Source of the DNA: a virus
Lineage: Duplodnaviria > Caudoviricetes
Length of the DNA stretch: 50,367 nt
Strand: one strand, 5' to 3'
Virus record (IMG/VR): IMGVR_UViG_3300032328_001047
Span: 1 to 50,367 of that record
The position numbers and the translations under genes are program-made. Under the pieces are notes generated by a model, which saw only the letters and a program-made list of their open reading frames with translations, was not told the origin of the DNA and ran no database searches. Within the stretch, counting starts at the first letter, position 1, and the number at the start of each line of letters is the position of its first letter. Positions 6,713-29,518 of the stretch are shown in pieces.

Positions 6713-7465
6713 TTAATCTTTGTATTTGTAATTGTCAAATTTTGGTGACTTTAATCTATTTTTCATTGTTGATGTTGGTATTCCAATTTGTCTTGCACCT
6801 TCACTTAAACTTTCGTATTCAATCCCTTCAACAATAATTTTTCTCATATTACCAGGTTTATTTCCTTTCAAAGTCTCCGATATTTTTCGTTTATGTTCCT
6901 CACTTTTAAGTTTTGAGTTCAACTCTTTTAATTTTTGTATTACATCAGGTTTATGTGTTTTTCCTTTGAATGGGTTGTTTTCTTTCATCCATTTTGAATG
7001 TTTTGGATTTGGTACACCTTTTTTTCCGTTTGGTTTTCCTTTTAATGGGCTAATTTTATCTTTTTGAGGGTTCACCCAATTTGGGTCGTCTCTTTTTTTT
7101 AATTTAATAATTTTAGTCCCTTTCTTCTTATTGTGTTCGGGTGATTTCATTTTTATGCTATGTTCCAACCCAATTTCATATCTTCTCGGGTTATTACTTA
7201 TAGTGTCACCTCCATCACCGCCTAACGAAATATTGTAACCTTCACTAATAGCGTTTAATTCTTTAATCCAAAATTTTTCTCTTTCATTAAGTAACTCCAA
7301 TGTATTACAAACTTCTAAAGTTTCTTTTTTGAAGTTCTCAATCCCGTATTTTTTAATTGCCAGTTTTAACCTTTTACCTGAACCGTAATAGTTAGGATTA
7401 TTGTGTATGTCTTTACCCACATAAAATTTTTGGTTAATTAAATTTGTTGTCCTATAAATAATCAT
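6713..7465 (-). mobile_element. Free-standing GIY-YIG homing endonuclease with NUMOD-like DNA-binding repeats
   Basis: IIYRTTNLINQKFYVGK, YYGSG, LNEREKFWI, GYNISLGGDGG; NPFKGKTH and YESLSEGARQIGI. Confidence 0.9.
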
Positions 7466-7511: not shown

Positions 7512-8597
7512 TTAATTAGAAAGTGGTAATTTTATTGTTGGGTGTGGTTGATACCCATCAAGTTTAATATCATCCAAAGTATATTCCGAAATATCATTAA
7601 CAACTCTATCAGATAATTTTACAACAGGTAATTCGTATGGTTTTCTTGTTAATTGTTCTTTAATTGGGTCAAGATGATTAAGATATAAATGAACGTCTCC
7701 ACCACTATAAATCAATTCGTTAGGAACCATATTAACTTGTTTAGCAATCATCATCAATAATAATCCGTATGACGCTAAATTGAATCCGAGTCCAAGTCCA
7801 ACATCTGTACTTCTCATATTAAACATTAGAGAAATTGCTCGTGTTGGTATGTTTGCATCATCTAATTGTTTAATAGAAGGTTTTGTTAATTTTCTACAAT
7901 CAAACCCATATTGTTCTTTAATATCATGTCTTTCTAACTCACTCAACTCTCTTGTATAAACTTGAAATCCATAATGACAAGGTGGTAACACCATAGTACC
8001 CAGTTCCCCAACATTGTAAGCATTAACCATTAAACGTCTTGAGTCTGGGTTTGTTTTAAGGTCGTTGATTAGGTTTTGGATTTGGTCTATTGATTCAGAT
8101 GATTTATACCATTCATTATGTTCTATACTTTCATCTTCAAATTTAGTCCAACTTCTCCATTGAGCCCCGTAAATTGGACCGAGTTCACCCCACTTCTTAG
8201 CAAACTCATCATCTGTTTTGATTTTGTTGATGAATTCTTCTTTTGATTCTTTACTACTTAGTAATTGTTCAATCGCTCTTTGTTTTACTTCTAATGGTTC
8301 AACTTTAATTGTTTCATTTAAGAATCTCTTATAAGCATCACCATCCCAAATATGACAATCGTTATCAACTAAATACTTAATATTTGTATCTCCTTTTAAG
8401 AACCAAAGTAACTCAGTCACCATAGTTTTCCAAGCCATTTTCTTGGTTGTAAGTAAAGGAAAGCCATCTGACATTTTATGCCTGATGGTATAACCAAATA
8501 TTGATTTGGTGCCTGTGCCGGTCCTGTCTTTCTTTTCTACTCCGTAGTCAATAATGTCCTGAAGTAATTGCTGATATTGCTTATCGAGTTTGTTCAT
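7512..8597 (-). CDS. thyA: Thymidylate synthase
   Basis: DRTGTGT, FPLLTTKK, ELLWFL, LGPIYGAQWR, SRRL, LPPCH, RSTD, GDVHLYLNH. Confidence 0.97.
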   Translation of the reverse strand: MNKLDKQYQQLLQDIIDYGVEKKDRTGTGTKSIFGYTIRHKMSDGFPLLTTKKMAWKTMVTELLWFLKGDTNIKYLVDNDCHIWDGDAYKRFLNETIKVEPLEVKQRAIEQLLSSKESKEEFINKIKTDDEFAKKWGELGPIYGAQWRSWTKFEDESIEHNEWYKSSESIDQIQNLINDLKTNPDSRRLMVNAYNVGELGTMVLPPCHYGFQVYTRELSELERHDIKEQYGFDCRKLTKPSIKQLDDANIPTRAISLMFNMRSTDVGLGLGFNLASYGLLLMMIAKQVNMVPNELIYSGGDVHLYLNHLDPIKEQLTRKPYELPVVKLSDRVVNDISEYTLDDIKLDGYQPHPTIKLPLSN

Positions 8598-8805
8598 CTT
8601 CATTTAAAAATAAGTTAATTAATTCGGAACTTTGTTTGTCATACTGTTCCTGTCTTTTGATTTCATAATCAAATCTATCATTGGTTAATTCATCTAAATC
8701 AACAATATGAAAATGTTGGGTTGGTATTGTAAATACTCTATACCCTGATGATATTTTATCTATAGTGATTCCATCAATGATGTATTTTTTATCGAGTTTG
8801 TTCAT
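8581..8805 (-). CDS. Hypothetical protein bounded by a 20-bp direct repeat
   Basis: Starts MNKLDKKY like thyA; ends DEQTR like upstream gene. Confidence 0.65.
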   Translation of the reverse strand: MNKLDKKYIIDGITIDKISSGYRVFTIPTQHFHIVDLDELTNDRFDYEIKRQEQYDKQSSELINLFLNEDEQTR

Positions 8806-9594: not shown

Positions 9595-11127
9595 TTATTT
9601 TAATAAAGACCTAATCTTTGTTAGTGTCGTTTCGTTATGAAATTCACCGTTGATGTAAATTGTTCTTAATTCACCGGATTCTTCTGTTCTCCAATCACAA
9701 TGGTCAATTAATTCATAGGTACCATCGTTTTCGTTTTCAAACACCGATAACAAACCAGTTGCTGATTTCTTAGTTCCGTCATCTGTGATTGGGTCTTTGA
9801 AGATTTCTCTACCAACAATTTTAGTGTTTAATCCTTGGTCAATCATATCACCGTATACAGGTTCTTGAAGTTCTACATACGTTGCTTTCATAGCAAATCC
9901 AAATGTGTCACGGGTATTGTATTGGTATGTGAATGAACCAATGCCTAACACTACGTTTGTAGATGCAAAACCTTTGGACTCTAAACGTTTACAAATTTCA
10001 TCCGCTCTTTCAATGGTAATTGAATCTCCGTAGATTGCTCCAATGTGTGAGTCAAGAACTTTATAACCTTGTTCGTTTACGGTTCCGCCAAATACATCCC
10101 AAAGTAATTCAATAACACCTTTTTCCTGTGGTGTCCAATTAGTTCTATTTTTACCTGCAATTCCTGTTCTATATGCTGGGTTTACACTACCACAAAGAAT
10201 ATCAACTGGGTCACCTGAGTCAGGACGAATAACCAATTTACCATCACGAGCCATAATCTCTTCTTTCAAAGTAACTACGTGTTCGGTACATACTTTCCAC
10301 AAGTCCCAAGTATCTGATACAACTGAAAGAATACCTTTAGGATATGTATTCAACAATCTACGGAATGTTTCAACCTCATCTTCTTTGGTTCCCGCACACA
10401 TTACAGAATGCTCTGTTGCTGGTACTGAACCACAAACAAACTCAGTTTCACCATAGTATTTACGTGCTCCGTAGATAGTTGGTAATGAATCTGAACCGAA
10501 GAATGAAGTTAAATGACCAAGACCTGAACTGATGGTTGCTTCCGCAGAATCCATACCTCTCATTGAGAAGTCGTGTCCTTGCCAATCAATAAACCAAGCA
10601 TTTTCCTTATCGGTTTTTTCTATCCACTTGGTCAATACCTTACGATATTGGTTAGCAATGGTTGCTGATGTCATTGGTTTCCACAATAAGTTAGACAAAA
10701 GAGTTTCCAAATAGTTAGTCAACCAATAGAAATCAGGATGTGTATTGTAGATAGTCAACACAGGTACCTTAATTGGGACTTTCTTACCTTCAGTAATACT
10801 TTTTACGATGATTGGTAAGTAACCTAAGTCATGTAATTTTTCAATGTGTGTGACATCATAGTCAGTTCCCAAGTACATGGACAACTCACGTTTAACTTCA
10901 CCACAAACCACATCTTTTGGTTGTGAGAAAAACCCTTCTTGGAACATCTCATGGATTTGTTTCATAACCATTTGACTTCCAAAAACAACAACTTGGTCAC
11001 ACCCTTTCGGTGCGTACTTGTTGCTTCTTGGTGTGAAGTTAGAATACACTAAAGTTGTTCCTTCAGGGTACTGTTGATGATGGCCAGTCTTGTAGCCATC
11101 TGTCAATAAAAATGGATTGATTTTCAT
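9595..11127 (-). CDS. Nicotinamide phosphoribosyltransferase-like (NadV/Namat)
   Basis: TDGYKTGH, HDFSMRG, VPATEHSVM, SVVSDTWD, VIRPDSGDP, IYGDSIT, KDPITDDGTKKS. Confidence 0.92.
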   Translation of the reverse strand: MKINPFLLTDGYKTGHHQQYPEGTTLVYSNFTPRSNKYAPKGCDQVVVFGSQMVMKQIHEMFQEGFFSQPKDVVCGEVKRELSMYLGTDYDVTHIEKLHDLGYLPIIVKSITEGKKVPIKVPVLTIYNTHPDFYWLTNYLETLLSNLLWKPMTSATIANQYRKVLTKWIEKTDKENAWFIDWQGHDFSMRGMDSAEATISSGLGHLTSFFGSDSLPTIYGARKYYGETEFVCGSVPATEHSVMCAGTKEDEVETFRRLLNTYPKGILSVVSDTWDLWKVCTEHVVTLKEEIMARDGKLVIRPDSGDPVDILCGSVNPAYRTGIAGKNRTNWTPQEKGVIELLWDVFGGTVNEQGYKVLDSHIGAIYGDSITIERADEICKRLESKGFASTNVVLGIGSFTYQYNTRDTFGFAMKATYVELQEPVYGDMIDQGLNTKIVGREIFKDPITDDGTKKSATGLLSVFENENDGTYELIDHCDWRTEESGELRTIYINGEFHNETTLTKIRSLLK

Positions 11128-11157
11128 ATATTGTTTTTATTTATTTTTTTCTTTTTT

Positions 11158-11481
11158 TTACCAAAAATATCTTACGTATTCTATTTCATATTTGTCCCAC
11201 ACTTGATATACAGCTTGAACAAATGGACGAACCCATTCTCCTTCTTCTTTTATCAAATACTCAAGTTTAGATTCTAAACTATCACCTAAATCATTACTAA
11301 CGATAGTGTCATTTCTAACCTCCACATCAAAATGATGGAGCCATATATGCCATAGGTCTTTATAGTGACCACCTGCTATTTTATGGTAATCTCTGAAGTA
11401 TTCTTCACCAATACCCATTTCTTTACAGATTTCTGATTGGATATCCAACCACTCATAGTAAGTAATTATAGTCCTTTTCAT
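11158..11481 (-). CDS. Hypothetical protein
   Basis: 107-aa ORF in operon. Confidence 0.65.
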   Translation of the reverse strand: MKRTIITYYEWLDIQSEICKEMGIGEEYFRDYHKIAGGHYKDLWHIWLHHFDVEVRNDTIVSNDLGDSLESKLEYLIKEEGEWVRPFVQAVYQVWDKYEIEYVRYFW

Positions 11482-11484
11482 TGT

Positions 11485-11904
11485 TTATTTTGTCAAAAGA
11501 TAATAGGTTCCAAATAATTGAATGTAATGTAACACTTGGTCAAATCCAATTACCGTGAATGCACCGAAGTTAGGAATTGGTGACCCGTATTCATTGTTAG
11601 CAAATTTACGACTTACAATCTTGCTGGTGAAATAATCCGTTAAAGTGTGGAAAACAAAAGTTATTAATGGAAATAATATCATCCATTCAGACCATTCAAG
11701 GTCTTTTATCTTAGGTCCCCCAAAGTGATTTCCCCATACCGATAATCCAAACATTACAATATACCAAATCAATGAATACGTTGCCGTGTGTTTCAAAAGA
11801 GCCTTAAAACTCTTACTCTTGTTTACAGCCCATTCTTCAGATTGGAAGATAAAATCCGCAACCCAATGGATGAAGATAATTGATAAAATTACTGTTAGTG
11901 TCAT
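11485..11904 (-). CDS. DUF3307-like membrane protein
   Basis: HWVADF.FQ, HTLTDY, DQVLH; start adjusted to ATG 11904. Confidence 0.75.
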   Translation of the reverse strand: MTLTVILSIIFIHWVADFIFQSEEWAVNKSKSFKALLKHTATYSLIWYIVMFGLSVWGNHFGGPKIKDLEWSEWMILFPLITFVFHTLTDYFTSKIVSRKFANNEYGSPIPNFGAFTVIGFDQVLHYIQLFGTYYLLTK

Positions 11905-11905
11905 A

Positions 11906-12013
11906 TTATTTTTTATTAAAAAAATCAGTGTAAATTGATAATAAAGCAACACATACACATATACCTATTACGATAATTGCAGTGACTTGGGCAACGGGAT
12001 GTAAGTTTTCCAT
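11906..12013 (-). CDS. 35-aa membrane peptide
   Basis: Manual translation MENLHPVAQVTAIIVIGICVCVALLSIYTDFFNKK; fills the gap between neighbours almost exactly. Confidence 0.6.
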   Translation of the reverse strand: MENLHPVAQVTAIIVIGICVCVALLSIYTDFFNKK

Positions 12014-12014
12014 A

Positions 12015-12965
12015 TTAAAATACGTTTAATTGTTTTACAAAGTTGTGAATTGTTGTGGGTACTGGAAATGCGTTTACGATGGTACCGTCTTGAATGTCTT
12101 TAACACTATTTGTTGTGTAGATACCTGAGACGTATTCTGCCAAACCTTCAAATCCTTGACTGAAGATTCCGTGTGTTACAACAAGATAAATCTCACCGAT
12201 GAACTTTTTATCAGACTTAATCGCCTTAGCAATTTCAATAAACGTCCTACCACCATCGCAAATGTCATCAATGATAAAGATGTCTTTATCCAAGTAATCA
12301 TTAGTAATGTTTAATGGAACATTGGTTCTCTCAATTTGACCTGTAATAGGGTTTCTATATTTTGTTGCCACAATAACATCTGATTTATACCCGATGTGTT
12401 GAGCAACTTCATAAATCTTTTTCAAGGCACCTGCGTCAGGTGAAACAAGTAATATATTATCAACATTCTCTTGTTCCCATGTTTTATATCCTTTTAATAA
12501 AAAATAATCTTTGAAAACAAAGTTGAGCAATTCTCTAGTACCTATCTTACGGAAATTGTCAATACAAGCCTCAAGTACATCACTATGTGGGTCCATAACT
12601 TCAACCTCTTCATAACCTTGTAGATTGATGATAGGTGCAATAACATCCTTAATGTAGTTGATACTACCTTTCATGAATTTACGGTCACTTCTTCCACCTA
12701 AACAATAAGGAATATAAAGACGAATTCGTTTGATACCAAGATTTTTTAACGATTGGGTAGCACAAAGAATAATTTCCAAATCTTCAAAACTATTCAATCT
12801 TGATTTAATTGTTATGCTATGTTTTTTAGCATATTCTCTTAATGTCTCAAAGGTGTTGTAATCATCCTCAATCAAATTGAATGAATGTTGACCATCAGGG
12901 AAATAGCTGACCTCATATTTGAATGAGTATCTGTCATTTGGGTTTACTAAGTTTATAACTTCCAT
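12015..12965 (-). CDS. Ribose-phosphate pyrophosphokinase-like (PRS/Adps)
   Basis: FPDGQ, LYIPY...RSDRKF, DPHS, VSPDAGA, IIDDICDGGRTF, VTHGIFS. Confidence 0.92.
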   Translation of the reverse strand: MEVINLVNPNDRYSFKYEVSYFPDGQHSFNLIEDDYNTFETLREYAKKHSITIKSRLNSFEDLEIILCATQSLKNLGIKRIRLYIPYCLGGRSDRKFMKGSINYIKDVIAPIINLQGYEEVEVMDPHSDVLEACIDNFRKIGTRELLNFVFKDYFLLKGYKTWEQENVDNILLVSPDAGALKKIYEVAQHIGYKSDVIVATKYRNPITGQIERTNVPLNITNDYLDKDIFIIDDICDGGRTFIEIAKAIKSDKKFIGEIYLVVTHGIFSQGFEGLAEYVSGIYTTNSVKDIQDGTIVNAFPVPTTIHNFVKQLNVF

Positions 12966-15018: not shown

Positions 15019-15231
15019 TTATATTTTAATTTTTATTATCTTTTCTTGTTTAACTCGTTCATCCATTTCAATATCATCAAGACATTGTTGGTAGGCGGAT
15101 TTCAAAGACCGCCCACCCCAATCTAAATTAGTAATCTCAGGACTATTCCAATTATCTTCATTCCACATAGAATACCATCCACGTGACTTGACCAATGAAA
15201 CCATTTCATCTAGGGTTACAGTTTCTTCCAT
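15019..15231 (-). CDS. Hypothetical protein
   Basis: Likely start ATG 15231 overlapping the ligase end. Confidence 0.55.
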   Translation of the reverse strand: MEETVTLDEMVSLVKSRGWYSMWNEDNWNSPEITNLDWGGRSLKSAYQQCLDDIEMDERVKQEKIIKIKI

Positions 15232-16247
15232 TCCGGTTTCAATATGTTCCATATTAATTTATCATAAGGTTTTCCATCCCACATGGCAAACATCACCGCT
15301 CTATAAGGTGGATGTCCGTAATTCATAACATGTTCTGCGAACTGTTTTTTGGTGGGTTCAACTTCTCTATCACCATACTTTCCATATCGGAAATACTGGT
15401 GTGCCTTCCCACAATCTTCAGATACTCGGTAAAAACCATACTTTAACAAATCTGCATAATCTTTTACTTTCTTATAAAATTCATCAGGTACGTCCTTTAA
15501 GAACTCGTTGATATCACCACCATTGGATAGGAACTCCCATACACCAGTGGTTGAAACATTTGTCATTATCTTATGAAGACGCAAATATTCCTCACCCTTG
15601 ATTTTCATTCGGTTTCCATTAGAGAAACGAACAACAAACCCTTCAGCGTTCTGCTCAACTTTATCCTTCAATTCGGAATAATCCCGAATTCCATCGTATT
15701 TTTTGACAACATCAAACCCATCAAACAATTCATTGTGTGGAAGTTCTTCACCAGTATCAGTGTTGATTATACCAAGTAAAACCAAACGTTCTTGACCATT
15801 GTATTCCACTACAATTTTGTTTTGTGGAAAAATTATCTCATACAGATAAGTGAACCCGTCAACAATCATGTCTTGGTAGTTGTGTTTTTGTGCAAACTCG
15901 GTCATCCATTTTGACTGGTCAGATGTAAATGAACCACGAGTGGCACATACCATTTTACCATTGTATTTGAACATGATTCCCAATGAACCGTCCATCTTAT
16001 CAAATACCTCAAAATCAGATGTTGGTGTGTGTTTATTTTCTTCTAAGTTAAAGAACTTTTTAAATGGTCGAGCAACAACATTACCTTCAGTATCTGTTAC
16101 CAAACCACGGCACTGTAAAGTTACTTCATCCCACTTTTCACCGTATTGAACAGCTGGAGTATAATTCCATATTGTCAATGGTAATGTTGGATGTGTCTGT
16201 TTATATAACAGACCATCATTATGATATTTGTTTAATTTAGGTAACAC
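15216..16247 (-). CDS. RNA ligase, T4 Rnl1-like
   Basis: CRGLV, RPFKKFFN, motif I DKMDGS, EGFVV, KIK; GTG start. Confidence 0.9.
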   Translation of the reverse strand: MLPKLNKYHNDGLLYKQTHPTLPLTIWNYTPAVQYGEKWDEVTLQCRGLVTDTEGNVVARPFKKFFNLEENKHTPTSDFEVFDKMDGSLGIMFKYNGKMVCATRGSFTSDQSKWMTEFAQKHNYQDMIVDGFTYLYEIIFPQNKIVVEYNGQERLVLLGIINTDTGEELPHNELFDGFDVVKKYDGIRDYSELKDKVEQNAEGFVVRFSNGNRMKIKGEEYLRLHKIMTNVSTTGVWEFLSNGGDINEFLKDVPDEFYKKVKDYADLLKYGFYRVSEDCGKAHQYFRYGKYGDREVEPTKKQFAEHVMNYGHPPYRAVMFAMWDGKPYDKLIWNILKPEWKKL

Positions 16248-17214: not shown

Positions 17215-17652
17215 TCAAAGAGAAATTTCAAACCTTTTTTTCATTGCTTGTAACTTATCTTCAGGTACGCCGTGTTCATTAACACCACCATGTCTATTCT
17301 CCACGATGATACTGAATACACGGTAACCATATTGTTTTGCCAATTCATAATAAGCATCCATCTCCCAATTTTGAGTAAAGGTATTTGATACTACAATGTC
17401 TGAGTTATCCAAACCAGATGTAACATGGTTGTTAATCATTGCCAATTCCACTTCAGATTGACACCACTCGTGAGCCTTTCTTAATTTGGTTGGGTCAAAC
17501 TTATACTCACCATCAACCATAAAATAACTGTCAGCCTCAAAATGAGAATCACCAAGTTGTTTTGCTAAAGTACTTTTTCCCGCTCCTAGTTATGGCACCC
17601 CTCTCAAAAGGTACAAATTTTTAGAGAGGGGTGTTTTTTCTTTAATTTTCAT
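17215..17652 (-). CDS. P-loop polynucleotide-kinase-like protein (AAA_33) with in-frame TAA inside Walker A (bypass candidate or pseudogene)
   Basis: MKIKEKTPLSKNLYLLRGVP*LGAGKSTLAKQLGDSHFEADSYF in frame with track ORF 17215-17520 (AHEWCQ, VVSNTF, HGVPEDKL). Confidence 0.8.
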
Positions 17653-17731
17653 ATATTTATTATTATAATATTAGAGGTTTACTCGGTATTGAATACAAAT
17701 ATAGTAAAAATATTTAATAATAAAACAAAAT

Positions 17732-18631
17732 ATGAAAGAATTTATAAGAAAATGTCCAATATGTGGTCAAATAATCAATTATACCAACAAATATAATTGT
17801 CAAAACGCAGAAAAAAAGAACACAAAATGTAAAAGTTGTGGTATCAAGTTAACAATGACTGACGAAAGAAAAGAACAAATGAAATTACGTGTAATTGGTA
17901 ATAAAAACCCGATGTTTGGGAAACACGGTAATCAAAACCCATTTTATGGAAAAAAACACACTAAAGAAAGTAAGAACAAAATGATTGAGAATAGAGATTA
18001 TTCTTCATATAAAACAGAAGAATTTAGAAAAAAAATTAGTCATTTAAACTCGGGAGATAAAAATCCTATGTTTGGTAAAACAGTATATTCAATTTGGATT
18101 GAGAAATATGGTGAGGATATTGCAAATGAAAGAATGAACGAATTACGACTTAAACAATCTTTAAATAGTTCCGGTAAGAATAATCCTATGTTTGGAAAAC
18201 CATCTCCAAATGGTTCTGGAAATGGTTGGTCAGGTTGGTATAAAAATTGGTTCTTTAGAAGTATCAAAGAATTATCGTACATGATAAACGTAATTGAAAG
18301 GTACAATATGGAATGGGTTAGTGCCGAATCAGATAGTTATAAAATTAATTATAATGACTATAAAAATTCAGAACGAACTTACACCGCAGATTTTATATTA
18401 AATAATAAATACATGGTTGAAATAAAACCAAAAAAATTATGGTCAAGTGATGGTGTTTCAAGAAAAAAAGAAGCTGGTATAAAATTTTGTACACAAAATA
18501 ATCTAATTTATAAATTAAGAGATGTTCCTAATTTATCATTTGAATCTATACTTAATTTATATAATCAAAAAATTATTATTTTTACCGAAAAATATAATGA
18601 TAAGTTTATAAAAAAATTTATAAAAAATTAA
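17732..18631 (+). mobile_element. Free-standing homing endonuclease: Zn finger, NUMOD3 repeats, TnsA-like PD-(D/E)xK nuclease
   Basis: CPIC/CKSC; four NP(M/F)(F/Y)GK repeats; FRSIKE...YTADF...VEIKP; opposite strand to neighbours. Confidence 0.8.
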
Positions 18632-18900
18632 AATACCTCATCATCATCTTTTTCAGGGTTAAATTCTTCAAATACAGTATTTTCATCCATCTCTTTCCAT
18701 CCACCTTCACCTTCTTGATAAGTGAACGCTAATGTTACAATACAACTTCTTAAAGTGTCCATTTCTCTTTGAATATAGTCAGGGTCAACAATAATTTGTG
18801 GGTCCCAACTACCATTGGTAATTTTTCTATTTAATTTTTCTGTAAGGGAGTTGTAATTAAATAACAACTGTCTCCTTAATCCATCCATCGAAACTTCCAT
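18628..18900 (-). CDS. Hypothetical protein
   Basis: 90-aa ORF in operon. Confidence 0.6.
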   Translation of the reverse strand: MEVSMDGLRRQLLFNYNSLTEKLNRKITNGSWDPQIIVDPDYIQREMDTLRSCIVTLAFTYQEGEGGWKEMDENTVFEEFNPEKDDDEVF

Positions 18901-18903
18901 ATC

Positions 18904-19554
18904 TTAGTCAATTCTTTTTTCGTGGTGGTCTTTAGGAAGAGTCAATTTTTTGTGGGGTCTATCCTTCATGATTGAACGGATTTCTTTGATGTTGATAGGA
19001 TATAAGTTATTGCCATCAACACCAACATCCATCGCTTTACCTTCGTTAATTCTAAGGTGTGGAGGTAAGTGAACGTGACCGTGTAAGTGAATGACACCAT
19101 CGTTCATTCCGTCCCAACTAGCAATTGGGTAGTGCATACAAACCAAAGATACTTTATCTATTTCTTTTCCATTTGGAATCCTTAAATCCAATTGGATATA
19201 ATCTTGGGTTGATGTAAACAACCTTTGAATATTGTCTTTGTTTCTACGAATGTGGTGGTCGTGGTTTCCATAAACCAAGTGAACATTTTTACATAAAATT
19301 CTTTTACGGAATTCATCAATCTGTTCAAATCCACCAAAAGACCAGTCACCCAAGTGAATCAAAACATCGTTTTCACCAACCATTTCGTTGATGTTGTTAA
19401 CTAATGTGTCATTCATATGGTCAAGTGATTTAAAATCTCGGGTTAAATTATCAGAGCCGGTCCAACGAGTTGTGGCACGGCAGATATTTGAGTGTGAATA
19501 ATGTGTATCACTCGTAAAAAATAATTGCTGACCTTTTTCTAAAATCAATTTCAT
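18904..19554 (-). CDS. Calcineurin-like metallophosphoesterase
   Basis: SDTH, HLGD, GNHD, HYP, HGHVH, DVGVD. Confidence 0.9.
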   Translation of the reverse strand: MKLILEKGQQLFFTSDTHYSHSNICRATTRWTGSDNLTRDFKSLDHMNDTLVNNINEMVGENDVLIHLGDWSFGGFEQIDEFRKRILCKNVHLVYGNHDHHIRRNKDNIQRLFTSTQDYIQLDLRIPNGKEIDKVSLVCMHYPIASWDGMNDGVIHLHGHVHLPPHLRINEGKAMDVGVDGNNLYPINIKEIRSIMKDRPHKKLTLPKDHHEKRID

Positions 19555-28158: not shown

Positions 28159-28668
28159 TTAATTTGAAATACCAAATAAATCTTTTTGAAATTCTTCCCA
28201 AACATGTGCTGCTCGACCAGCGACTAATTCAGAAAAAACAGTGGGTTTATAAGGACGAACCCTAAATTTAAGACCTGCTTCTTCAGGTGTCTTACTACCC
28301 TTCCTTGAATTACAATCAAAACAACAGGTGACCATGTTTTCCCAAGTATTATCACCACCACGAGATTTTGGTATGACATGGTCAATTGTCAATTTTTTTG
28401 TGTTTCCACAATATACACAAGCGTAACCGTCCCTTTGATAAACTCGTGAACGGGAAATCTTTATGTCTTTAGCATTTTTCTTAATTCTGATATAACTGAG
28501 TAATCTAATGATGATTGGTCTTACAAAGTTACCAATAGTGGTAACAATAGGAGTTTCATCCTTCTTCAATATTTCGGCTTTACCTTTATCAACTAATACA
28601 AATCCTCTACGCATTGTTGTTACGTTCAAGGGTGTGTAATCGCTGTTTAATACTAATACTTTTTCCAT
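28159..28668 (-). CDS. HNH endonuclease (McrA-like)
   Basis: VLVLNSDYTPL, RDGYACVYCG, TIDHVIPKSRGG, WENMVTCCFDCNSRKG. Confidence 0.92.
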   Translation of the reverse strand: MEKVLVLNSDYTPLNVTTMRRGFVLVDKGKAEILKKDETPIVTTIGNFVRPIIIRLLSYIRIKKNAKDIKISRSRVYQRDGYACVYCGNTKKLTIDHVIPKSRGGDNTWENMVTCCFDCNSRKGSKTPEEAGLKFRVRPYKPTVFSELVAGRAAHVWEEFQKDLFGISN

Positions 28669-28733: not shown

Positions 28734-29471
28734 TTAGAATTTCAACAACATTGCTGAAACTCCGTTCCACACTTTGATTTGACGACGAGGAACCCAAAAT
28801 TCCATTTCACCAATTTCTTCAATTCTTGCAAGAACGTCTTGGTTGAAACGTTCAACTTCAGACTTGTCTTTGATGTATTCCACTCTCAAGTGTTTAGCAC
28901 ATGTCTTACCGTATCCTGTTAGACGAGAGAACTCATCGGTCAAGGTACGACCACATGATTTACACACACCGCAGTTTTTTGTTGTTAATTTACCTTTGAA
29001 CTTCACTGCTTTTGCGGTCAAGGTAACAACTTCGGTGATGTCCAACAAAAGTGGGTTGAAGTTCAAACCCTTTTGTTTTTTCAAGTCTTCACCTGTGTTA
29101 CGACCAACCACGATAGTTTCACCAATTACGTCAATATTCACGTCCATTCGGTTTTTATCGTCGTTTTCTTTTTGGATTTGTTTGTTTGCAGCAGATACTT
29201 GTGCGTCTGACAAAGTACCATATTTAAGGAATTTACCTTTTACATCCAATACGAAAGTATTTTCACCTGCGTAATCTGCGATTCTTCTCATATTATCAGA
29301 TAGGAAACGTGTTTCTACTTTTGTTGGTTCCGCCAAGGTTTTTTCAGCAGCTTCGGCTTGTTTTTCGGTTAGACCTCCGTATTGGAATACTACTTGTTTC
29401 ATTTTACGGACGAAGTCATTTTGACCTCCGTAGTTTCTAATTTTGGCGTTTAGTTTAGTTGTCGTGTTCAT
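28734..29471 (-). CDS. Protein with DUF6011-like zinc finger
   Basis: CKSCGRTLTDEFSRLTGYGKTCA; start set at ATG 29471. Confidence 0.7.
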   Translation of the reverse strand: MNTTTKLNAKIRNYGGQNDFVRKMKQVVFQYGGLTEKQAEAAEKTLAEPTKVETRFLSDNMRRIADYAGENTFVLDVKGKFLKYGTLSDAQVSAANKQIQKENDDKNRMDVNIDVIGETIVVGRNTGEDLKKQKGLNFNPLLLDITEVVTLTAKAVKFKGKLTTKNCGVCKSCGRTLTDEFSRLTGYGKTCAKHLRVEYIKDKSEVERFNQDVLARIEEIGEMEFWVPRRQIKVWNGVSAMLLKF

Positions 29472-29518
29472 GGTGGTAGTGATTAACAATACAAAGATAC
29501 TGTATTTTTTTTTAAATT

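Follow-up and report, generated by a model that had tools for sequence, protein, structure and literature searches.

The window, that is, the whole stretch of 50,367 nucleotides analyzed here, is part of a large phage genome with terminase, portal and head protease genes, and it raises the question of how a kinase gene with a stop codon inside its P-loop could still be expressed in full. At the P-loop (core at 17595-17584), the minus strand reads AGA GGG GTG CCA TAA CTA GGA GCG GGA AAA AGT, letter for letter as given in the preliminary description of this locus; the six bases TAA CTA are referred to as the gap. The rest of the gene, which that description had regarded as intact, is an open and conserved frame of 123 codons assigned to Pfam AAA_33. 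The answer proposed here, with a probability of roughly 0.85, is programmed bypassing: peptidyl-tRNA-Pro would hop over the gap, pushed by an mRNA hairpin, and an endonuclease element would thereby break its own target while the gene survives. The features discussed below are listed in Table 1.

Table 1. Positions of the kinase gene, the inserted cassette and the predicted recoding signals in the window
Feature	Position	Strand	Remarks
Kinase ORF limits	ATG at 17652, TGA at 17217-17215	-	
Cassette-encoded 20-codon kinase start	17593..17652	-	A-rich leader, hairpin 5' arm, first beta strand, RGVP
mRNA hairpin	17596..17633	-	10-bp outer stem, 38 nt, last base directly adjoins the predicted take-off codon
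Predicted take-off codon CCA (Pro)	17593..17595	-	
Stop codon TAA	17590..17592	-	First gap triplet
Predicted landing triplet CTA	17587..17589	-	Near-cognate for tRNA-Pro UGG
Predicted resume codon GGA	17586-17584	-	
Kinase body, 123 codons	17215..17586	-	Open, conserved, starts GAGKST; Pfam AAA_33; T4 Pnk kinase-domain relative
Inserted cassette, 1,069 bp	17572..18640	.	Replaces 53 bp of the intact allele
Bacteroidota-type -7 promoter element TAnnTTTG (TATATTTG)	17696..17703	-	
Predicted free-standing homing endonuclease, 299 aa	17732..18631	+	Cys4 N-terminus, NUMOD3 repeats, TnsA-like PD-(D/E)xK domain
T4 Rnl1-like RNA ligase	15216..16247	-	Pfam RNA_lig_T4_1, E 3.6e-19; outside the cassette
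Metallophosphoesterase	18904..19554	-	Pfam Metallophos; context gene

The Interrupted Kinase Gene and Its Neighbors

Based on a profile of 22 intact relatives, the kinase domain of T4 polynucleotide kinase (1ltq) was the first solved structure matched and the best solved relative (E 1.6e-9), and by sequence the window protein is T4 Pnk-like. It is a kinase-only protein, in which it differs from T4 Pnk, and its relatives with a gap include proteins with a kinase and a HAD phosphatase domain. Compared with the intact allele L001, the kinase body showed a dN of 0.061 and a dS of 0.617. Because an Rnl1-like ligase (a further likeness to T4 Pnk) and a metallophosphoesterase are encoded nearby, the kinase likely functions in RNA repair, with the ligase as its likely partner, and the bypass product would be an active 5'-OH polynucleotide kinase working with this ligase. 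Elsewhere in the window (9595-12965, minus strand), a nicotinamide phosphoribosyltransferase and a ribose-phosphate pyrophosphokinase form an NAD salvage pair.

The preliminary description had allowed for an insertion unique to this assembly. An assembly error as the source of the gap was ruled out by gap-carrying contigs in runs X2 and X4 (from the study of the likely source run, X1) and in runs X6 and X7 (from two other studies), and the gap was found in 73 distinct alleles. The X6 and X7 contigs differed from the window by 13 substitutions in 281 nt, with 0 indels; among the codons listed for X6 (17 touched), 11 differences were synonymous and 6 were not.

Insertion of a Cassette Carrying a Predicted Endonuclease Gene

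As shown by blastn, the cassette replaces positions 2963-3015 of L001, comprising the end of the upstream gene and the kinase start through the P-loop codons, and the flanks are 88.8% identical to L001 up to 18641 and 89.6% identical from 17571. In cassette-free contigs of runs X2 and X5, about 17565-17580 is joined to 18638-18647. The kinase P-loop codons in the cassette-borne start are synonymously recoded. With its other end (18628-18640), the cassette also gives the upstream 90-aa gene its last codons and its stop; in L001, this gene runs into the kinase start at its end. The contribution is a miniature likeness to the C-terminal extension of the T4 MobA element.

The inserted element includes the predicted endonuclease gene, which the preliminary description had overlooked, on the strand opposite to the kinase. 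Among 32 aligned members of the endonuclease family, Pfam NUMOD3 was found in 31 and Tn7_TnsA-like_N in 28 (the window's own protein is not one of these 28), and D220, E230 and K232 are invariant. The structural model had a pLDDT of 85.8; its top fold match was TnsA (1t0f), with a probability of 0.99 but an E of 0.033, and the fold search gave no match at E <= 0.001. The enzyme is predicted to cut the P-loop codons of intact kinase alleles, and the gap together with the recoded flanks would make the carrier immune to it.

Relatives of the endonuclease also occur in other settings. Close relatives lie directly upstream of other kinase-like genes with an unbroken P-loop (L126, 3001-3960; L127, 3001-4060, whose frame seems to shift about 40 codons in), so the family can sit beside kinases without a gap. 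Longer relatives lie between other replication-type genes and not beside a kinase (L124, 2385-3542; L125, 2704-3867). The window itself holds a second predicted homing endonuclease directly after thymidylate synthase (6713-7465 and 7512-8603, both minus strand; PHROG matches, one with a GIY-YIG motif), as well as an HNH endonuclease gene (28159-28668, minus strand) with a neighbor of no assigned function (28734-29489, minus strand).

The TAnnTTTG element, a consensus described as the Bacteroidota -7 element in the passages of PMC6847099 drawn on here, was confirmed at the place where the preliminary description had put it. It was found upstream in 30 of the 31 alleles whose endonuclease is divergent, usually at a single distance, and in 8 of the 41 intact alleles; genome-wide it is not enriched (103 against 89 +/- 8). 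This element is likely the cassette's own kinase promoter. Since the promoter motif is joined by one gap allele from a Saprospirales bin (L287), the phage host would be a member of the Bacteroidota. Roughly 100 nt ahead of the kinase start, the cassette promoter also remains in three gap alleles that lack the endonuclease (L229, L094 and L061), and in L229 and L061 the apparent first codons of the lost endonuclease remain on the opposite strand.

Gap Alleles Form a Conserved and Mobile Family

The pattern R-G-x-P-stop-NNN-G-x-G-K-S/T was searched in viral contigs without a filter on frame, and the same scan of GTDB was used as a chance control. Viral contigs yielded 63 loci with TAA or TGA and 9 with TAG, all 72 of which were kinase genes with a hairpin and an open tail of 115-288 aa, whereas 53 of the 54 GTDB matches were due to chance and only L287, possibly a phage contig, was real. 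When gaps of up to 33 nt were allowed in one upstream context, 101 loci were obtained, 45 of them with a six-base gap. A further 15 were kinase loci whose gap measured 5, 7, 8 or 9 bases, the remainder were unrelated, and none was a kinase with a gap longer than 9 nt. Every tail of these 15 loci in this unfiltered scan was at least 104 aa. Without the stop requirement, at least 118 loci were found, and all 57 kinase loci among the matches listed began the gap with a stop, none with a sense codon in its place. A metagenome scan gave at least 119 loci, with six real ones among those listed, two of them ending at contig ends. Take-off codons with a first base other than C gave three matches and no kinase. 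Of 58 viral-contig relatives, 57 were displayed (L050 is cut by the contig end); the P-loop was unbroken in 56 of them, and L031 has a gap of its own.

The catalogue comprised 73 gap alleles and 41 intact alleles, all distinct. Duplicates, tails shorter than 60 aa, four rows without the upstream motif and two contig-end metagenome loci were left out, and two divergent alleles were added by hand. The gap measured 5 nt in 6 alleles, 6 nt in 58, 7 nt in 4, 8 nt in 2 and 9 nt in 3; thus 12 of the 73 alleles combine a frame-shifting gap (5, 7 or 8 nt) with an open tail, the non-triplet alleles having been pre-selected by the 60-aa open-tail rule. The take-off codon was CCG in 35 alleles, CCT in 35, CCA in 3 and CCC in none, and the first gap triplet was TAA (35), TGA (31) or TAG (7). 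The last gap triplet was CTA (22), CCA (18), CCG (11), ACA (8), CTT (4), TCA (3), CCT (3), TTA (2) or CTG (2). A Pro-like last triplet was present in all 24 distinct gap strings, against 8 of the 53 chance matches, with ACA classed as Pro-like after inspection. The tabulation of alleles that the preliminary description had called for gave 73 alleles, each with a Pro codon, a stop, a Pro-like last triplet and a hairpin.

The gap was found in three architectures, namely kinase-only, kinase with HAD phosphatase, and kinase with a weak cyclic-phosphodiesterase match. In the long kinase group, L347 and its copies have a 5-nt gap and a tail of 156 aa (about 277 in relatives), and their second domain may be lost or split. 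In a metagenome allele, L544 (300-329), the 5-nt gap ends in ACG, which adds another landing variant; the tail of this allele is cut by the contig end.

An endonuclease gene lies directly upstream in 41 of the 73 gap alleles (31 divergent, 10 on the same strand) and in none of the 41 intact ones. Among the 64 gap alleles with at least 900 nt of upstream sequence, 25 have no endonuclease and retain all signals and the open tail. In a quick tree based on 125 columns, gap and intact alleles interleave with 16 changes, at least 8 of them forced by strong branches, although this tree does not separate gains of the gap from losses; the gap alleles being related, the counts do not represent independent events. 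The window allele nests among the intact alleles L001, L002 and L004. Gap-less revertants with the cassette start were absent from the best 120 of 5,098 protein matches, and 50,697 records of cultured phages contained 0 endonuclease matches, 0 cassette matches and 619 distant kinase matches. The gap allele family is conserved and mobile, and not a one-off.

Relaxed selection downstream of the stop had been named beforehand as a sign that would speak against a bypass. Tail dN/dS was about 0.11 (the median was 0.113 for 18 pairs of gap alleles and 0.082 for 25 pairs of intact ones), although tail divergence between gap alleles may partly predate the arrival of the cassette, which weakens this evidence. 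The cassette might alternatively inactivate a dispensable kinase, the gap doing no more than destroy the endonuclease target and the tails being intact because invasions are recent. Such a history would suit the interleaving of gap alleles with close intact relatives and the near-identical kinase starts on tails with a dS of up to 0.89 (L095/L118), much of which may predate invasion. However, none of the 72 unfiltered matches has lost its open tail, and the 25 alleles without an endonuclease keep hairpin, stop, landing and tail. Moreover, the strand that the cassette encodes ahead of the stop shows constraint at the protein level, and a dead gene needs neither a Pro-like last triplet in 24 of 24 strings nor a covarying stem. 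Inactivation is thus considered very improbable.

A Hairpin Adjoins the Predicted Take-Off Codon

The 10-bp stem that the preliminary description had reported, ending on the base before CCA, is present (17633-17624 paired with 17605-17596). The 51-nt stretch containing it folds at -19.4 kcal/mol (z -4.9, 0 of 200 shuffles as good), while z is only -1.9 in a 111-nt stretch. A hairpin was found in all 73 gap alleles and in none of the 41 intact ones, and the upstream fold of the gap alleles (-16.2 to -27.2 kcal/mol) does not overlap that of the intact alleles (0 to -12.2). The distance from the stem end to the Pro codon was 0 nt in 54 of 64 alleles and 1 nt in 8. In one fixed register across 55 alleles, 40 stem cells had changed on both sides, against 14.4 in shuffled data, and 79.3% of the cells were paired (71.3 when shuffled and at most 62.5 in slid registers); as the register was taken from the window and the sequences are related, these values are support and not a probability. 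No take-off stem-loop and no structure across the gap were seen in the window or in the alleles folded, and no downstream barrier was found, the window giving a z of +1.35 and downstream folding being the same as in intact alleles.

The 39 distinct 21-codon starts showed a pN/pS of 0.64 in codons 2-7, 2.58 in the 5' arm, 0.28 in the beta strand and 0.03 in RGxP. The 5' arm is thus constrained as RNA and the beta strand and RGxP as protein, with little constraint on the Lys-rich leader. The protein constraint ahead of the gap concerns a peptide that would serve no purpose unless it continued into the tail. The 5' arm itself encodes T-P-L-S and not the Lys-rich stretch once assigned to it, which does lie just before the arm. 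A T4-like nascent-peptide signal, also suggested earlier, found no clear support: Lys5 occurs in 31 of the 39 starts, but codons 2-7 are 66% A and have the pN/pS of 0.64 given above. The stem begins 19-23 nt past the ATG in most alleles, which suggests that the leader may keep the stem off the initiation site.

That the hairpin might act only as a plus-strand terminator had been raised at the outset. As such it would guard the endonuclease gene and be unrelated to the gap, and any hop would be unassisted. In the window, a T tract does follow the hairpin on the plus strand, and this antisense strand folds better than the mRNA strand (-24.8 against -20.6); in 31 alleles the hairpin lies upstream of a divergent endonuclease. 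In 50 of 64 alleles, however, it is the mRNA strand that gives the better fold, and G-U pairs occur on this strand. Furthermore, the hairpin is retained in 10 same-strand and 32 endonuclease-less alleles, and the position of its 3' end is tied to the take-off codon. A terminator scan found 0 terminators, which is uninformative because only loops of 3-8 were allowed. A pure terminator is therefore very unlikely, while a dual use of the hairpin as terminator and hop aid is conceivable.

Proposed Mechanism of Bypassing

As predicted from these features, the ribosome would pause with the stop TAA in its A site, and peptidyl-tRNA-Pro would leave CCA. At take-off the 3' arm of the hairpin would lie within the ribosome, and its pairing would be complete only after an advance of about 5-9 nt, such that the zipping up of the hairpin could push the ribosome forward and drive the hop. 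Peptidyl-tRNA-Pro would then re-pair at the near-cognate CUA, and translation would resume at GGA. If the comparison with MobA holds, the endonuclease would lose its cut site to the gap while the kinase gene survives. Take-off at Pro, a stop in the A site, a near-cognate landing and resumption at Gly, as the preliminary description had envisaged them, fit 73 of 73 gap alleles, the hop itself being deduced from sequence.

The catalogue has the marks expected of bypassing. A slow A-site codon, the stop, directly follows the take-off codon in all 73 alleles, and the gap length (5-9 nt) is independent of frame while the downstream frame is conserved. In 21 of the 24 gap strings, which end in YY(A/G/T), the tRNA of the take-off codon can pair again directly ahead of the resume codon, and the 3 strings ending in ACA have one mismatch to the anticodon UGG. 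YY(A/G/T) pairs with the anticodon UGG using G-U. Given that the take-off codon is never CCC, that the landing never ends in C and that mismatched landings mostly end in A (35 of 41, against 18 of 32 matched ones), the hopping tRNA would be tRNA-Pro(UGG). CCG accounts for 19 of 316 Pro codons in the window phage yet for 35 of the 73 take-offs, as if weak take-off pairing were favored. CTA and ACA are unlikely to be decoded because Leu and Thr are absent from this P-loop position in intact proteins (P in 116, C in 1 and S in 1 of 118). The G-rich 3' arm resembles a Shine-Dalgarno (SD) sequence about 6 nt before the landing site, a likeness to gene 60, but Bacteroidetes ribosomes are reported to fail to recognize SD sequences (PMC7797042).

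Some points weigh against a hop. The window's own landing is mismatched (CCA to CUA), and the ACA landings of 8 alleles need a first-position A-G mismatch. Hop efficiency may be low, since there is neither a take-off stem-loop nor a downstream barrier and unprogrammed stop-hops are low-level in the part of bioRxiv 2024.12.09.627546 drawn on.

The gap might also be a micro-intron, cut from the mRNA by a nuclease and resealed by the phage RNA ligase. Excision would cope equally with 5-9 nt, and an Rnl1-like ligase and a phosphoesterase are neighbors of the kinase. Nevertheless, no structure spans or follows the gap, its ends share no common splice motif beyond the decoding constraints, and those constraints (a Pro codon, an in-frame stop, a triplet for the Pro anticodon with wobble rules) are of the decoding type, which makes excision highly improbable. 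Read-through of a normal or reassigned stop, giving a kinase with two extra residues, suits the in-frame 6-nt gap of 58 alleles including the window's, but it deserves next to no credence because 12 alleles shift frame and all three stops occur, which excludes it as the family mechanism, and because the two residues would remove the Gly at the start of GxxGxGKS. An alternative genetic code or a suppressor was rejected, as TAA ends 17 of the 19 window genes checked and no tRNA gene lies in the window. Re-initiation (no start codon at the gap) and transcriptional slippage (no homopolymer at the gap) were also discarded.

Comparison With Known Bypass Systems

The published systems are compared here as they appear in the passages of the cited sources that were drawn on. 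The T4 MobA element measures 1097-1106 nt, replaces 55-75 nt, and brings an N-terminal extension, a homology region and a gap at its end (Manning and Atkins, bioRxiv 10.1101/2022.08.31.505936). The kinase cassette resembles the gene 60/MobA system in its size of about 1.1 kb, its free-standing endonuclease, the N-terminal extension encoded by the element, the recoded host codons and the gap with a stop after the take-off codon, as well as in repeated insertion at one site, with the endonuclease often lost and the gap remaining. As in gene 60/MobA, the endonuclease, the new N-terminus, the recoded homology region and the gap constitute one mobile unit.

The kinase cassette also differs in several respects. 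The host gene is a Pnk-like kinase instead of the topoisomerase II large subunit gene, which is split; the endonuclease is NUMOD3/TnsA-like instead of HNH MobA (or GIY-YIG/VSR); the gap is 5-9 nt instead of 20-50; and take-off is at Pro instead of Gly or Asp. In gene 60 homologues, take-off and landing codons differ at most at the wobble base (bioRxiv 2022.08.31.505936), whereas 41 of 73 kinase alleles have a landing triplet with a mismatch in its first or second base. The 5' hairpin, poorly conserved in gene 60 clades, is the sole conserved structure in the kinase family, which lacks a take-off stem-loop containing the take-off codon and a downstream barrier and shows no clear nascent-peptide signal. 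In T4, the forward drive is proposed to come from pairing of the mRNA as it exits (bioRxiv 10.1101/2024.12.09.627546). In its way of working the kinase family resembles gene 60, but its host gene, endonuclease family and take-off structure place it outside that group.

Synthetic stop-hops, in which nine bases are read as one residue across a stop (Weiss et al. 1987, via PMC5009743; the title mentions hops of +5 and +6), share this reading with the predicted kinase hop. They are artificial, occur at a low level and need no signal, whereas the kinase hop would be a conserved natural event assisted by a hairpin. According to the passages used from a 2016 review (PMC5009743), hopping over an in-frame stop was not known in nature. 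The Streptomyces phage Hau3 terminase has a 10-nt bypass with proposed 5' stimulators (a stem-loop and an SD sequence), which works in E. coli with its slow codon changed to a stop (PMC10732093). It shares with the kinase family a short gap and stimulators located 5' of it; it differs in its 10-nt length, its regulatory nature and its trigger, the rare codon UUA, and the source passages (PMC10732093) make no link to an endonuclease. In the byps of Magnusiomyces capitatus mitochondria, mobile inserts are made harmless through bypassing, and imperfect matches between take-off and landing are tolerated (PMC5009743; bioRxiv 2022.08.31.505936). These differ in their length of 27-55 nt, their mitochondrial ribosomes, an unused sense codon in place of the stop, and their independence of context. 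The Hau3 terminase and the byps are the natural cases besides gene 60. No published bypass in a phage kinase was found in a literature search that was thin on subscription papers and did not extend to supplements.

Implications

Only a handful of examples of natural programmed bypassing are known. With somewhat better than even confidence, the kinase alleles may be the first family of programmed stop-hops found in nature and, among bypass modules known, the smallest, in which a 5' hairpin would act as a piston that sets a jump of 5-9 nt and tRNA-Pro would land on CUA, UCA, UUA and ACA, triplets that it never decodes. The same reading would make the cassette a portable route, free of intron and intein, by which an endonuclease enters active-site codons across three kinase architectures, and the kinase may respond to the supply of release factor or tRNA-Pro.

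Within 50 nt, the family offers a test system in which nature has supplied 24 gap variants, three stops, and matched as well as mismatched landings, and it isolates the push by pairing of the exiting mRNA, a disputed idea (bioRxiv 2024.12.09.627546), from the other signals of gene 60. It suggests that such genes are mis-called as truncated ORFs or pseudogenes, and that homing endonucleases have in the bypass cassette a third general means, in addition to introns and inteins, of occupying conserved sites. If true, the hop in this phage kinase would show in natural and minimal form a way of decoding for which phage T4 has so far been the main example.
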